Both the position numbers and the translations under genes were made by a program. The notes under the pieces are model-generated. The model searched no databases and was not told where the DNA came from. It saw nothing but the letters and a program-made list of their open reading frames with translations. Below are positions 33,023 to 38,108 of a stretch of DNA of 64,000 nt, piece after piece (the stretch's first letter is position 1; each line of letters starts with the position of its first letter). The stretch covers positions 576,001-640,000 of the forward strand of contig CAWEQH010000010.1 of the NCBI GenBank assembly GCA_963811165.1. The letters run 5' to 3'. The DNA is from an uncultured Nitrospiraceae bacterium. Its GTDB lineage: Bacteria; Nitrospirota; Thermodesulfovibrionia; Thermodesulfovibrionales; UBA6898.

Positions 33023-33113
33023 GCTCAACGCTGGCCATGAGGCGCCGGACCACAGACCTTTGTGCAAAAAGATCCAGCGTTATTCCCGGGCTGCCTCGAT
33101 GCCATTGATGAGT
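33023..33113 (-). repeat. attC site (degenerate R'')
   Basis: Minus strand: ACTCATC-aatg-GCATCGAGGC...GCCTCATGGC-cagc-GTTGAGC. Confidence 0.65.
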
Positions 33114-33119
33114 TGCTTT

Positions 33120-33535
33120 TTAAATGACATCTGTATACCGAAAATCATTAAAATCCAGGTCTGTTTTTCCGAGTAAATCTTTACGCATGGCTAAAACGAT
33201 CTCGCCAACAGCCTTGCGTCCTGCCTCCGGATTCGGCTGCTGTCCCCGAGATTCGATAACATGGACAATCATCCTATTTATGGCTCTTACGACATCATCG
33301 GAACAATAAAGCCACAATTTATATTGTTCTCCAAAAAATTGTCTTTTTCTTTCAGCAGAAGTTGTGCTGCCGACAAAGCCTCGCAAGAGGATCAAAAGAT
33401 TTGAATACTTTTCTTCTTTAAATTTTAGAATTGCTTCCTTTCGTTTTGATTGGATAGCGAAGTAATAAGCAAGGTAAGAGCTTGCCAATCCCGAAAGACC
33501 GGCCCAATGAAAAGGAATATGTCTTTAATATTCAT
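33120..33535 (-). pseudogene. Cassette gene (N-terminal TM hypothetical) with a 1-nt frameshift
   Basis: GAGGAG RBS and ATG at 33535 give MNIKDIFLFIGPV; the frame shifts near 33497 into SGLASSYLAYYF... (span 416 nt, not a multiple of 3). Confidence 0.6.
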
Positions 33536-33544
33536 ATTTTCTCC

Positions 33545-33615
33545 TCACAACGACCTGCATAAGGGGCTGACAGCACGTACAGTGCTGGCAGTATCTCTTA
33601 ATGCAATTGTTCTAC
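33545..33615 (-). repeat. attC site
   Basis: Minus strand: GTAGAAC-aat-TGCATTAAG...AGCACTGTACGTGCT...CTTATGCA-ggtc-GTTGTGA, with one extra base in L''. Confidence 0.75.
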
Positions 33616-33630
33616 CCTTCTATCTGCTAT

Positions 33631-33774
33631 TTATTTCAGCTTTTTCTTGCATAATGGGCATGTATCACGCCAATTGCCGTGGCAGCTTGAGCAAATGAAA
33701 TGGCCCTTTTCGCAGGTTTTAGCCCTATCTACTTGTTTCTTTTTTCCACAAGCATCGCATACGCGTTCTGACAT
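33631..33774 (-). CDS. 47-aa C3HC4 RING-finger protein
   Basis: AAGGAGGT RBS; MSERVCDACGKKKQVDRAKTCEKGHFICSSCHGNWRDTCPLCKKKLK = Cx2Cx11Cx3Hx2Cx2Cx7Cx2C. Confidence 0.75.
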   Translation of the reverse strand: MSERVCDACGKKKQVDRAKTCEKGHFICSSCHGNWRDTCPLCKKKLK

Positions 33775-33790
33775 TTTTACTACCTCCTTT

Positions 33791-34492
33791 TTATTTAGTT
33801 GATGATTGAGCAGGGTACAAATAGCTCAGAATATTTATTAGTGGCTTAAGAAAGAGAAAACGTGTCAAAGTCTTCAATACAATTGACTTTGAGATAGCCC
33901 TTGCTATCGGTGGGGATATCATATAATAGGCATTAATAAATGTGCGCCCAGGTTTAGACATACTAAGGACAGAATTACGATACTGTTGCAAATATAATAC
34001 TTCAGGAGCCATTGATGTCCCAAATGCGGCTGTTGCGATAAAGCAACCGCCAGACTTTGTGTCCTTTTTCTCAACGTGACTTAGTTTTGAGCCATCTTCA
34101 TTAATCTGGCTTAGTTGCGAACTTACTTCCGCAATTAAGCGTTTTGGTTCTTCTTCTGTCGGCTTCTGTTTTTCTGCGCGTTTAAAGAAAGCAACAGCCT
34201 CGCTGTATTCAACCCTCGCTTTTTCATTATTCCCTTTCATTTTAGCCATTTCGCCTTGCATTCTGTGCACATGTCCTTCTGTGAGAAGCTCCGTATAGTA
34301 AGAATCCCAAATATCTTCTCCGTCATTATCTTTTGGCATTGCACAACTCTCTAATTTGCCGATTTGCCTACGAATTTGGTCGATAGAATACATACATCTA
34401 CAATTTGGACAGTACTCATATCCTTGAATTTCCGGGACGTCAAATTCTTTACCACAATGGCACTTTGCGGGTACTGACGAAGTGTTGGTCAT
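33791..34492 (-). CDS. Zn-ribbon + TPR-like + CFI-box-CTERM protein (cassette)
   Basis: CHCG...CPNC at the N-terminus; helical TPR-like middle; GGCFIATAAFG...APEV..L..YR..VL...GRTFINAYY.ISPPIA. Confidence 0.75.
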   Translation of the reverse strand: MTNTSSVPAKCHCGKEFDVPEIQGYEYCPNCRCMYSIDQIRRQIGKLESCAMPKDNDGEDIWDSYYTELLTEGHVHRMQGEMAKMKGNNEKARVEYSEAVAFFKRAEKQKPTEEEPKRLIAEVSSQLSQINEDGSKLSHVEKKDTKSGGCFIATAAFGTSMAPEVLYLQQYRNSVLSMSKPGRTFINAYYMISPPIARAISKSIVLKTLTRFLFLKPLINILSYLYPAQSSTK

Positions 34493-34537: not shown

Positions 34538-34627
34538 TTATAACGAGATGGCTCACTTGCCGGGGCAACCAACCTTTGCTGCAAACCGCAGAGGCTATTC
34601 CCGGTCAAGTGGAGCCGGTTGTTAAGG
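34538..34627 (-). repeat. attC site
   Basis: Minus strand: CCTTAAC (contains the upstream gene's stop)-aacc-GGCTCCACTTG...CAAGTGAGCC-atctc-GTTATAA, with an extra C in L''. Confidence 0.85.
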
Positions 34628-35224
34628 CATTTCTCTATTCAGTAATTTCATCTTATCAAGCATTTTGATAGATAATTTTTTTTTGTTTGCCAAAAGCGCA
34701 ATTTGCAGGGCTGAAAGCATAGCGAGAGCATTTCCAGTATTAAGTAGCTCCACTATTTCGTCGTCTGTATAATTTGGTTCGAGGGTTTCGGCCTTAATTC
34801 TGCGGACAGCCTGCAAATATCCGCTATGAGTAAAGCTATTCATAGCAGCGTAGTTTTCCTTTTTTGCAGAAGAAAGTATTCCTTCTTCGAATCCTTTACA
34901 GCTTTCGATTTCCGTAATTAATGCTCCAAAGCTCTTCTCTAATTTATCTTGTTTGTATCTTGATATTTCTGTGTCAGTCGCGCACAGCTGCAGCCAAACG
35001 CCTCGGACGTAAGATTCAAACTCCAGCCGAATGAGGGAAAACGCGGATCCAAATAATTTATTGGCTATGAGAAGCAATATTGCTTTTTGATGTTCAAGTG
35101 CCACGAGCAAACAGGCAACTGCAAGTCGTCGTCTTTCATCAGATGGAACTGCAAGACCATCAAGTTCCTCGTCAAGCCACTGAATTAGCGTTTCGGAATT
35201 ATTAATAATTTCGGTTATATTCAT
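34622..35224 (-). CDS. Cassette hypothetical protein (DUF6988/DUF5677-like, all-alpha)
   Basis: ALEHQKAI..L......GSAFSLIR..FESYVRGVW...MNSFTHSG. Confidence 0.55.
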   Translation of the reverse strand: MNITEIINNSETLIQWLDEELDGLAVPSDERRRLAVACLLVALEHQKAILLLIANKLFGSAFSLIRLEFESYVRGVWLQLCATDTEISRYKQDKLEKSFGALITEIESCKGFEEGILSSAKKENYAAMNSFTHSGYLQAVRRIKAETLEPNYTDDEIVELLNTGNALAMLSALQIALLANKKKLSIKMLDKMKLLNREMP

Positions 35225-35333: not shown

Positions 35334-35789
35334 CTATTTAATGTAATAAAATACGATTTTCGGACAACCGTTAGGACAAACCAAGCTGACATTTCTTTGA
35401 GGCTCTATGGATTGTTGAAGGGTGGATCTGATATTTTTGTTGTCGAAGCAATTGCAACAAAGCTTATGTGCTTTTTCAGCCATACCCACATAATTCTTCT
35501 CTATATACGCAAAAACACCATTCCCAATTTCACGCCGTTCATAGTTTGCTTTTTCTGTACTCCAGTCTTTAAGGCGCATACATTCTTTTTCAAGTTCCTG
35601 TATTTTCGTCGTCAAAGAAGAATGTTCATTTTGTGCAGAGATAATCAGGCTGTTTGCTTGGATAATGTGGCCTTGAAGTTGTGCGATCTCGCCAGCATGC
35701 TTAGTAAAATCGCGGAGGTTGAGAAAAGATGATAATACACTTGTTGCGGCGTTTAAACTGGAAAGGGCTTGTGGTAGATATTCAATCAT
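35334..35789 (-). CDS. Cassette hypothetical protein (coiled coil + C-terminal Zn ribbon)
   Basis: GGAGG RBS; KIQELEKE...W..EK.NY...LCCNCFD...CPNGC. Confidence 0.7.
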   Translation of the reverse strand: MIEYLPQALSSLNAATSVLSSFLNLRDFTKHAGEIAQLQGHIIQANSLIISAQNEHSSLTTKIQELEKECMRLKDWSTEKANYERREIGNGVFAYIEKNYVGMAEKAHKLCCNCFDNKNIRSTLQQSIEPQRNVSLVCPNGCPKIVFYYIK

Positions 35790-35846
35790 AATTTATTCCC
35801 TCCTTTTGGGAAATAGAAAGGTTGCTGGTATGAATAATTTACTGAC

Positions 35847-35865
35847 TCCTAACATGTAATATGCC
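35847..35865 (-). other. attI-like simple site 3
   Basis: Minus strand GGCATAT-TACAT-GTTAGGA; GTTAGGA is the exact complement of this cassette's R'' TCCTAAC. Confidence 0.55.
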
Positions 35866-36214
35866 AAGTTGGTTTTTTGTGATCCCTTGCAGGATGATAG
35901 CATATTCATTACCTCTTGTGAAGAAAAAAAGTCTATAGATCAGTAAGTGAATAATTTACTACTTGGCATTTACTGTTAATATGGACTAAAAGCCAACTTG
36001 GTAAAATCCGGTATTGTTCTTATCGTCGATTTCCGAGAGCAACTGAGAGGAGTTGAAGCAAGCGCTCAGATGCGATGTACAGGAAGAAATCGCACCCCCT
36101 TATAGTTTAACTAGGTGGGTGCAAAATGCAAAGGGCTTTGTTTAATATATACATATCTCACCGGGGTAATGTTGTTTTGTTCTTAAAGGCGGCGAGGTTT
36201 ACTTATTAATGTTT

Positions 36215-36553
36215 TCAGACACCATCGGATTTTGTTTCGATTGCGGTAAGATTTTTTGCATATTGAAGCATCTGTTCGAGTTCCTTGTGGGTAAGACCCT
36301 CAGCCTGAATGACCTTATCGTCTTTAGTTGTTATGATGACTTTTCGGCCATGACTAACTTTAAGGTATGCAATGATGACTGATGCGAGACCGCCCCACAT
36401 GGCGGCAGATTGCAATATTTCAATAACCCCGGAGGATGCCATCGGTACGCCAGCACGTTGTTCTCGCATAGTGTAGGGCACTTGTTTTTCGTTGAGCAGC
36501 GCGAGAAAAGGACCGAAGCCATCCTTGAAGAGATGAACAGGTAATGATTTCAT
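36215..36553 (-). CDS. Cassette hypothetical protein (EACC1-like)
   Basis: AAGGAG RBS; central hydrophobic helix followed by RKVIITTKDDKVIQAEG. Confidence 0.5.
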   Translation of the reverse strand: MKSLPVHLFKDGFGPFLALLNEKQVPYTMREQRAGVPMASSGVIEILQSAAMWGGLASVIIAYLKVSHGRKVIITTKDDKVIQAEGLTHKELEQMLQYAKNLTAIETKSDGV

Positions 36554-36561
36554 TTGCGCTC

Positions 36562-36580
36562 CTTTAACCAGTAATTAGAC
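36562..36580 (-). other. attI-like simple site 2
   Basis: Minus strand GTCTAAT-TACTG-GTTAAAG (L box, 5 nt, GTT core), the same geometry as attI1 CCCTAAA-ACAAA-GTTAGGC. Confidence 0.6.
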
Positions 36581-36627
36581 CGTTAATAGTACTAACACCG
36601 GTAATCCGATGTTAGTCAACCAGTTAC

Positions 36628-36673
36628 CAGCCGGAAGCCGCCCGGAGCAGTTCGCTGCAGCGCATGGTTAGAC
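36628..36673 (-). repeat. Truncated attC (R''-L'' half only)
   Basis: Minus strand GTCTAAC-catgc-GCTGCAGCGAAC with no L' partner; fused to attI-like site 2. Confidence 0.6.
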
Positions 36674-37342
36674 GTTTCTAATCGCTTCATCGAGAACTGC
36701 CTTCCAGTAAAGTTCTGAAATGATAATAGGCTTGCGACGCTGAAGCTTGAGAATCATCGCGTCGGAAATCTTGTTGCCATAACTACCATGCGCCCAATTC
36801 GGATTTGGGTCGTTGCCGATAACTAGGACGTCGGTCTTGTTGGTGATGTTGTCAGTTGTGGTGCCTCCCCGCGACGTGACAGCCACCTGACATTCCTTGC
36901 GTGTTCCGAACTCGAACTGGCCAGTGAAGCAAAACGTTGTGCCTGCAATGGCAACTTCCGGCAAAGGGTCGTCGAATGGCGAACCGTCCTTGAGAACATT
37001 CTCGATTACCTGCTCAAGTGCCTTGCGAGTCTTGGAGGGGGTGATTGGGCCTCGCTTAGGGTGCCAGTCGGCGGGGATCTCCGTGCGAGCAAGAACGGCT
37101 TTATCATGAGGGAGGAGGTCTGTGGAAACGTGCTCCTCGTCGCCAGTCGTATAAACATATGCTGTCCAGAGATGCTTGTTGGTGGGGTCGGAAAAAAGTC
37201 TGCCAATCATGCCGGAACAAAAGCCCTTAGTTAGTGGGCGACTAATGTCGATATCGAAAAAACGCAGCACCTTGAGTTGGCCGAATGTGGCAGGGTCGAA
37301 GTGCCAAGCTGGGTGGACTGATTTTAGTTGGTATGTTCTCAT
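36668..37342 (-). CDS. BRCT-domain cassette protein
   Basis: FCFTGQFEFGTRKEC...V.SRGG...ITNKTDVLVIG...W.HGSYGNKI..A...IISE.YW. Confidence 0.75.
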   Translation of the reverse strand: MRTYQLKSVHPAWHFDPATFGQLKVLRFFDIDISRPLTKGFCSGMIGRLFSDPTNKHLWTAYVYTTGDEEHVSTDLLPHDKAVLARTEIPADWHPKRGPITPSKTRKALEQVIENVLKDGSPFDDPLPEVAIAGTTFCFTGQFEFGTRKECQVAVTSRGGTTTDNITNKTDVLVIGNDPNPNWAHGSYGNKISDAMILKLQRRKPIIISELYWKAVLDEAIRNV

Positions 37343-37376: not shown

Positions 37377-37712
37377 GGAAACCGCCCCGATAATATCGAA
37401 ATTTGCATATTCGTCAGATCAAGCTCGACTTTCCCCATAGTTGATTACTTGTAATAACTTACACCATTTTGAAGATTTTGAAAAGCGAGGATTTCAGGAA
37501 GGAAGGTTGCGCCTGGTCTCCCTTCTTTAGCCCTCGGCGTGCTTCGCCCCGAACTCTAAACGGTTTTTTTGTCAGATCCAGCGAATGACAGGTATGCCGA
37601 ATCGAAACTATTGCGGATTTACGGAAGCAATGCGGAGTAATGAGGATAAATGAGGCGCAGGGGCAACCAGACATCATTGAAGAAAACCACAGGGGTTAGG
37701 GATATTTAGCTA

Positions 37713-38108
37713 TTGTTCCATGACTATTTTCTGAAGAATGTGCCGATCATCACAGTTGGTGACCAAGTCAGAAATAAATTGGATCCGATAGTTGAAAAAG
37801 CAGATATGATTCTCACTATGTTTCCCGGGAAATTGAAGTTCACCATTCTACTTCTAGATAAAGTTACCGATGTTAGGGCAAGCTGGAAACAAAAATATAG
37901 GACCAGAACTGATTATGTCGCTTTCTATTCTCGTCAAAATAAAACTATATATATTTCCGTCAATGAGATCTCTCTAAGAATTTTGGCGCATGAGTTGGCC
38001 CATGCTATAATTGACCAATATTACTGTACCTACAATTCCTGTACGCTTATTCTTGAAAATGAACATGAGGTGCTTGCGCATCTGGTGGAACTCCGAATCG
38101 AGTTTTGA
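37713..38108 (+). CDS. Hypothetical protein with HExxH motif (possibly 5'-truncated)
   Basis: AFYS....TIYIS...ILAHELAHAIID...HEVLA. Confidence 0.5.
   Translation: MFHDYFLKNVPIITVGDQVRNKLDPIVEKADMILTMFPGKLKFTILLLDKVTDVRASWKQKYRTRTDYVAFYSRQNKTIYISVNEISLRILAHELAHAIIDQYYCTYNSCTLILENEHEVLAHLVELRIEF

Follow-up and report, generated by a model that had tools for sequence, protein, structure and literature searches.

Most of what is known about RING fingers concerns E3 ligases. Among the sporadic prokaryotic RINGs, to which the proteins described below can be likened, the Prok-RING_1, Prok-RING_2 and Prok-RING_4 groups attributed to Burroughs 2011 are said to be fused or tied to ubiquitin-like operons, in which they would differ from our family. 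According to PMC10557695, RING E3 proteins are uncommon in bacteria and are tied to operons for E1, E2 and ubiquitin-like (Ubl) proteins. The archaeal protein srfp of Ca. Caldiarchaeum subterraneum is, in PMC5654768, drawn with a RING-H2 consensus, encoded in a ubiquitin/E1/E2 operon and proven to be an E3, with residues I30, W58 and R69 mattering for its E3 activity. In the available parts of PMC7159879, which cover Hsp70/GrpE/DnaJ, vWA and tubulin conflict systems, the sole prokaryotic RING mentioned belongs to a full Ubl/E1/E2/JAB set, that of the FtsH ternary systems. Phage defences of one or two genes are, in turn, frequent in integron cassettes, and Sucellos and Toutatis each keep two genes in a single attC-bounded cassette (10.1101/2024.07.02.601686).

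The window analysed here is the whole 64,000-nt stretch of DNA from an uncultured Nitrospiraceae bacterium, and the locus of interest within it is likewise a two-gene, attC-bounded cassette. Unlike Sucellos and Toutatis, with which it shares no domain, it is a putative defence cassette, and the terms RING, zinc, TPR and ubiquitin are absent from the accessible text of 10.1101/2024.07.02.601686. Its second gene encodes a 47-aa protein that resembles eukaryotic RING-HC E3 domains (the SINA/SIAH RING PF21362, RNF4, RNF8, TRAF3, TRIM) in its C3HC4 order and spacing, its CxxGH and CPxC motifs and its predicted fold. Unlike these, members of its family are bare domains below every Pfam cut-off, with an incomplete E2-binding triad in 92/92 and a conserved basic N-terminal face; where eukaryotic RINGs have their central helix, the longer members have a Gly-hydrophobic loop (64/92). 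Like srfp it is a small, free prokaryotic RING; unlike srfp, the family is RING-HC, mostly bacterial, and lies beside E1/E2 genes in 1 of 113 loci. Partner classes equal to those of the conflict systems in the available parts of PMC7159879 occur beside relatives in loci L013, L103, L089, L118 and L018, but no GTPase or MoxR core was seen in these loci, and the window has no Hsp70/GrpE/DnaJ, vWA or tubulin genes.

A literature search found no description of this RING family, which the supplement of Burroughs 2011 could nonetheless list. What is new is less the pairing of a CFI-box gene with a RING than the free RING family and the partners it keeps. A cross-phylum family of bare 43–58-residue RINGs is a small, clonable test of RING action without ubiquitin, and bears on how RINGs entered conjugation systems. 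From its neighbourhoods come hints of a function for the uncharacterised CFI-box-CTERM domain, as well as a second unnamed family, C1, and its members are carried in integron cassettes, from which new phage defences are known to come. Our preferred reading, to which we assign a probability of roughly 45%, is that the RING works independently of ubiquitin, as an adaptor or regulator within a mobile module for stress or phage defence, beside a TPR-like/CFI-box gene.

Cassette structure and integron setting

The cassette and its flanking recombination sites are laid out as follows, in transcription order.

34538 to 34627, minus strand: attC site at the end of the upstream cassette; the two-gene cassette starts with its final bases (z −2.75)
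33791 to 34492, minus strand: 233-aa gene for a protein with a predicted Zn ribbon, putative TPR-like helices and a C-terminal CFI-box-CTERM domain
33782 to 33789, minus strand: Shine-Dalgarno sequence AAGGAGGT, 7 nt upstream of the small-ORF ATG
33631 to 33774, minus strand: 47-aa stand-alone RING-HC (C3HC4) ORF, net charge +7
33545 to 33615, minus strand: attC site ending the two-gene cassette, 71 nt, shorter type (z −4.36; 25.3 bits)

The stop codon of the 233-aa gene and the ATG of the 47-aa ORF are 16 nt apart, with AAGGAGGT at 33789–33782 inside the gap. The sequence-only reading had placed the two genes, at these positions, in one cassette between two attC sites; ORF calling, hairpin folding and a covariance model all agree with it. 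Both flanking sites fold as bottom-strand hairpins (z −2.75 and z −4.36), and 0/200 shuffles of the 33545–33615 site were as stable as the original. The covariance model was built from 13 host-genome sites (10 on the integrase side and 3 from the window); it recovered the 33545–33615 site, which lies outside its training set, with 25.3 bits and E 5e-4. The 34538–34627 site is a training member of the model, and it can be aligned to the 10 attC sites next to the host integrase.

That integron integrase (TIGR02249, 396 bits) lies on the same contig, ~95 kb away, in a complete integron (G000:C10:705661-715443, locus L177) in which the integrase is followed by 11 similar attC sites of ~90 nt. The 64-kb window itself has four scored attC sites and no integrase, and the array is therefore of the CALIN type. 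The two-gene element is thus an integron gene cassette in a CALIN, with R and L boxes, bottom-strand hairpins and attC-bounded ORFs. The array adjoins tRNA-Asp and tRNA-Val genes, its end being ~450 nt from both, and the cassette has a G+C content of 40% versus ~51% for the genome. A promoter scan found about as many sites as chance would give (6 versus 5.2 expected), and a search of sequencing runs listed no RNA data set.

The next cassette supplies a defence context, as it encodes a candidate PDC-S52 protein: its gene (window 34622-35224, minus strand; DUF6988), upstream of the two-gene cassette, matches that PADLOC candidate defence with E 7.7e-30. On the downstream side, a cassette for a 122-aa protein (window 33120-33488, minus strand; attC 33023-33113) gave no match in Pfam, NCBIfam and PADLOC searches. 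Further upstream, window 35334-37342 (minus strand) holds cassette-like genes for a 151-aa coiled-coil protein with cysteine, a 112-aa protein and a 224-aa BRCT protein, and attC-like remnants, unscored by the covariance model, lie near 36600–36680 and 37640–37730.

A family of stand-alone RING genes

The 47-aa protein arranges its ligands as C6-x2-C9-x11-C21-x3-H25-x2-C28-x2-C31-x7-C39-x2-C42. This C3HC4 spacing had been noticed from the letters of the DNA alone, and all eight ligands proved invariant in 92/92 aligned members; the CPLC with which the pattern was said to end does close the ligand set, and five more residues follow it. Among the 68,665 six-frame segments of the host genome, just one has the pattern, the 47-aa ORF itself.

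Substitutions point to a conserved gene. Against its closest relative (L009, 89% identical), the ORF shows 20 synonymous versus 5 replacement codons, and against L089 25 versus 9; a Shine-Dalgarno-like motif precedes 82 of the 100 relatives with upstream DNA. Relatives were found as 7 clusters in a protein search, in 203 of 516 metagenome candidates (80 kept), in 32 of 70 genome candidates and in 1 of 21 viral candidates. The genomes belong to Nitrospirota, Bacteroidota, Acidobacteriota, Pseudomonadota, Chloroflexota, Planctomycetota and others, together with one Heimdallarchaeota bin. Its distribution is sporadic: among 301 genomes of the host phylum, a full-length RING of the family was found in the host only, three others giving weak partial matches inside long frames, and a plasmid search returned no RING match. 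Judged by its synonymous excess, its relatives and its invariant ligands, the small ORF is a genuine gene, as the sequence-only reading had supposed, and one of a conserved, widespread stand-alone family.

The alignment comprises the window ORF and 91 distinct ATG-started ORFs of 43–58 aa, and omits duplicates, ORFs without a near ATG and ten loci outside the extraction pattern. Along with the eight ligands, M1, R4, G10 and G24 are invariant in all 92 members. Conservation is centred on a basic N-terminal face (R4, D7, G10, K11, K13, G17, G18, K19); the C-D-x-C start has its Asp in 81/92, and net charge across the family ranges from +2 to +8. Being short, such genes can be missed by gene callers, and the exact 47-aa sequence is missing from a 15-billion-protein collection; in the ESM Atlas, the RING query returned three unnamed hypothetical clusters at 0.89–0.90. 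Seven longer RING-containing proteins were considered as conserved fusions and rejected, as the RING sits at the protein end, starts from its own Met and has unrelated flanks; they are probably start or read-through miscalls.

Predicted fold

The ligand order C-C-C-H-C-C-C-C assigns the protein to the RING-HC type. It reaches no Pfam or NCBIfam cut-off, its matches remaining below the gathering thresholds for Sina_RING (23.0 of 29.3 bits, E 9e-5), Prok-RING_4 (18.7 of 27, E 0.0016), zf-RING_5 (17.6 of 27.9) and zf-C3HC4 (11.8 of 21). The four commonest Pfam hits over the 92 members are nevertheless all RING models, matched by 61, 45, 45 and 42 members; Prok-RING_4 accounts for weak matches in 42/92 (best E 5.5e-5), and no match to Prok-RING_1 or Prok-RING_2 is among those listed. 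Searched against the PDB, the family profile found the RINGs of RNF4, TRIM, Pex12 and Bre1 (best E 2e-4).

The AlphaFold2 model of the 47-aa protein has a pLDDT of 86. Its Foldseek rows are nearly all RING or U-box domains, with RNF8 first (E 0.019) and SIAH1 at TM 0.68 and rmsd 1.9; the RING matches have probabilities of 0.9–1.0 and E values of 0.02 or worse, none reaching 0.001. The best VIA-align match is chain a of PDB 9fhl, a 71-residue chain of an archaeal (Saccharolobus) 30S subunit (Z 5.8, rmsd 2.3, 47 residues aligned), followed by RING and ZZ domains at Z 3–4.7 (RINGs at 3–4.6, ZZ domains at 3.3–4.3), which are tied. The predicted structure is a binuclear, two-zinc cross-brace fold, and the structure prediction and structural searches proposed at the outset returned a RING-like model.

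The ribosomal chain and the ZZ domains among the VIA-align matches would suit a binuclear zinc finger of another kind than a RING, either ZZ-like or ribosome-binding, with N-terminal peptides or RNA as its ligand; so would the conserved C-D-x-C start and the positive charge of the family. Against this, both the ligand order and the CxxGHxxCxxC...CPxC motif match RING-HC domains, and the commonest Pfam matches, the profile matches and the Foldseek matches are RINGs. We consider a non-RING finger very improbable.

Relation to ubiquitin conjugation

E1, E2 and JAB genes adjoin the RING in only one of the 113 loci (L104, from a Stygiobacter genome). There, a single run of genes (L104:6001-9655) encodes a RING, a membrane protein, an E2, a JAB protein with a J-like tail and an E1; the RING heads the operon, and no obvious Ubl gene is present in it. 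The E2 is divergent, being missed by Pfam UQ_con and detected by PADLOC with E 1.7e-12. When the L104 proteins were used as queries against all RING loci, no other such locus was found (the E1 query did detect the host ThiF genes), and neither plasmids nor 400 genomes of the L104 phylum yielded a relative of the E2. E2 models match somewhere in 5 of the 32 RING genomes.

The sequence-only reading had seen no E1, E2 or Ubl genes around the cassette. No E2 was found near the RING, and four models plus one protein query detected none elsewhere in the host, whose genome is 95% complete, a search in which Prok-E2_A/B had no positive control and Prok-E2_C/D/E were left out. ThiF and JAB genes are present in the host genome.

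Could the RING nevertheless be a true E3, a bacterial counterpart of srfp that borrows E1, E2 and Ubl from elsewhere and uses the TPR/CFI-box protein as substrate receptor? Its predicted fold is RING-like with E3 ligases as the nearest structures, and L104 does unite RING, E2, JAB and E1 in one run. Parts of the E2-binding surface are also in place: loop 2 keeps P-[LIV] in 88/92 members, a Lys or Arg follows the last cysteine in 44/92, and the window RING, with Ala8, Trp35 and Lys43, has two of the three triad positions, its Trp being at the canonical helix position. By retaining W35, P40-L41 and K43, it keeps most of the surface and is closer to canonical than most members. On the other hand, at the sites equivalent to those of srfp, loop 1 has Ile, Val or Leu in only 20/92 members, a large hydrophobic helix residue is found in 5/92, and the complete triad in 0/92. 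In the L104 RING, the sole one with an E2 neighbour, the three E2-binding positions are occupied by Lys, Thr and Ser. Because E2 genes were not found in the host, are adjacent to the RING in just one of the five RING genomes that have them, and the E2-binding surface is incomplete, the E3-ligase role implied at first is weakened, and we now regard it as decidedly unlikely.

As a separate observation, an Angelobacter genome has an operon for E1, a Ubl ending near GG, E2 and JAB (L127:864-2863) and, on another contig, a RING and CFI-box pair.

The CFI-box protein and its pairing with the RING

The first gene of the cassette encodes a 233-aa protein with the following parts.

34400 to 34462, minus strand: predicted N-terminal zinc ribbon with four cysteines (C11, C13, C28, C31), from the sequence
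34112 to 34309, minus strand: putative TPR-like helical region, ~aa 62–127, by homology to the N-terminal part of P0021
33848 to 34045, minus strand: CFI-box-CTERM domain, aa 150–215

The C-terminal domain matches NF041770 (CFI-box-CTERM) at aa 150–215 with 79.5 bits versus a cut-off of 40. The ribbon has a weak Pfam match (A2L_zn_ribbon, E 0.0065) and is conserved in P0021, a protein of 399 aa that has TPR hits, the same CFI-box and additional cysteine pairs; the first 127 aa of our protein are 63% identical to the P0021 N-terminus. The 233-aa protein is therefore a shorter form of the P0021 architecture, its TPR-like region having no Pfam match of its own. A literature search found no paper mentioning 'CFI-box-CTERM' or 'CFI-box'. 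From its label and its basic amphipathic sequence, the domain may have a membrane-anchor or sorting role.

The 113 RING loci fall into 97 non-redundant groups. A CFI-box gene on the same strand, within 2.5 kb of the RING, is present in 15 loci (10/97 groups; 7 within 500 nt), and the remaining 87/97 groups have none in the locus DNA examined; of the three closest relatives, two have other neighbours. In L009/L010, too, the RING follows a CFI-box gene as the second gene of one attC-bounded cassette, and the product of that CFI-box gene has an N-terminal domain unrelated to that in the window. Six of the 32 RING genomes have a CFI-box above cut-off, within ~2 kb of the RING in four, which are two related pairs. 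Across the host phylum, CFI-box genes above cut-off occur in 100/301 genomes versus a full RING in 1/301. In a co-folding run, the CFI-box domain (16-row alignment) and the RING (90 rows used) scored 0.00 against a mark of 0.32, a value that speaks neither for nor against their binding.

These data show that the CFI-box–RING link is real but non-exclusive. The cassette had been read as a candidate two-component system, and a search for co-occurrence had been proposed: the pair does recur, in 10/97 groups and in the second cassette of L009/L010, but strict mutual co-occurrence, as expected of an obligate pair, was not observed. Of the outcomes named in advance as refuting that reading, namely an untranslated small ORF, a non-RING zinc finger or a lack of any co-occurrence with CFI-box genes, none was encountered. 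A fixed two-component system is only partly right, since most CFI-box genes occur without a RING and the RING swaps partners.

Toxin–antitoxin cassettes are common in integrons, and a tightly coupled cassette with one large and one small gene has the layout of such a pair, in which a membrane-tethered CFI-box protein would be toxic and the RING would neutralise it, or the reverse. Neither protein, however, shows a recognisable toxin domain or catalytic motif in Pfam, NCBIfam and PADLOC, and neither has a match at E 0.001 in PADLOC 2.0. CFI-box genes without a RING in about one third of host-phylum genomes, together with RING partners that are mutually unrelated, also speak against such a pair, which we judge improbable.

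C1 and other exchangeable partners

C1 is an unnamed 115-aa family, with members of 104–130 aa, found beside the RING in 20/97 groups, twice as frequent as the CFI-box (20 versus 10 of 97). The C1 profile and the partner queries come from RING loci, which inflates the enrichment of C1 and of the other partners. Examples are as follows.

L049:3618-3962: C1 gene
L013:1397-1750: C1 gene
L030:3461-3802: C1 gene
21 other RING loci: C1 genes

Eight of the 32 RING genomes have C1, in single copy and beside the RING each time. It was found in 0/800 randomly drawn genomes of two phyla, nowhere without a RING among the 832 genomes searched, and not in the host genome. No Pfam or PADLOC match and no usable ESM Atlas match were obtained; the model (pLDDT 90) has no clear structural counterpart (no Foldseek E <0.1; best VIA Z 4.8). 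A conserved GG near the C-terminus raised the idea that C1 is ubiquitin-like, which was dropped as no beta-grasp row appeared in the Foldseek and VIA lists.

Among the neighbours (700 ORFs called, with 219 protein scans against Pfam), other partners recur in the 97 groups as follows: TPR 15, J-domain 7, vWA 7, TerB 5, Hsp70 3, GrpE 2 and tubulin-like 2. Gene density in the host would lead one to expect ~2.2 for TPR, 0.2 for J, 0 for vWA and TerB, and 0.1 for Hsp70, a rough background from one genome. At least one tallied partner class is present in 48/97 groups and none in 49/97, many contigs being short. Partners lie on the same strand as the RING, often ≤50 nt away. Sites resembling attC occur in 13 RING loci (10/97 groups), some with weak scores under a host-specific model, and there the genes found in one cassette with the RING are those for CFI-box, C1, a family of 211 aa, DUF6232, or a J-domain together with vWA.

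Partner exchange is also evident on the RING tree, which has 53 columns, weak resolution and unsettled bootstrap and was used for partner turnover only. The CFI-box label changes 9 times on it, with 6 changes forced by well-supported branches, and of the two other members of the window's well-supported clade, one (L011) follows a TPR gene and the other (L089) ends an Hsp70 operon. Such turnover would fit a RING that is a self-sufficient mini-effector or a passenger, landing beside variable genes of cassettes and conflict islands, with the CFI-box protein independent of it. Two RING copies in one locus, seen twice (L013, L082), the many CFI-box genes without a RING, and Toutatis, a two-gene cassette in which a 64-aa protein alone protects according to 10.1101/2024.07.02.601686, all lend themselves to this view. 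It sits poorly with a partner set that is narrow, same-stranded and often ≤50 nt away, with C1 never occurring apart from the RING in 832 genomes, and with a CFI-box-then-RING cassette known with two unrelated N-terminal domains; we think it unlikely.

Proposed function

Under the preferred reading of the RING as a ubiquitin-independent adaptor or regulator, both cassette genes would be read from one transcript. The CFI-box helices would tether the 233-aa protein to the inner membrane, where its variable N-terminal Zn-ribbon/TPR part may recognise a client, for example a damaged protein or one from a phage. Through its N-terminal face (R4, D7, G10, K11, K13, G17, G18, K19), the small basic RING could then dock and relay or tune the response. 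Such an adaptor would serve sensors or chaperone-like proteins that can replace one another as partners, and its binding, localisation and role in defence are inferences.

More tentatively, the RING may be the common subunit of an undescribed class of mobile conflict modules, a reading we rate as less likely than not, in which a constant, ubiquitin-free RING, in its fullest form with C1, plugs into TPR, CFI-box, J-domain, vWA or Hsp70 sensors. If true, the family would be a living model of RING function before, or apart from, E2 enzymes, and L104 would represent recruitment of the RING into an E1–E2–JAB operon.

Additional RING neighbourhoods

Several loci merit a brief description. In the putative Heimdallarchaeota bin, C1, a RING and a weak attC-like site lie together on a 3.5-kb contig (L100:756-1367). 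The 211-aa family, which has no Pfam match (L014:1283-1936, L034:1119-1754, L044:4173-4808), is upstream of the RING in one locus and downstream in others. In L013, L103 and L089, the RING lies within a second Hsp70 operon or forms its end (Hsp70–vWA fusion, GrpE, J-TPR, TerB), and in L118:169-5599 and L018:5805-6297, vWA and tubulin-like genes lie downstream of the RING.
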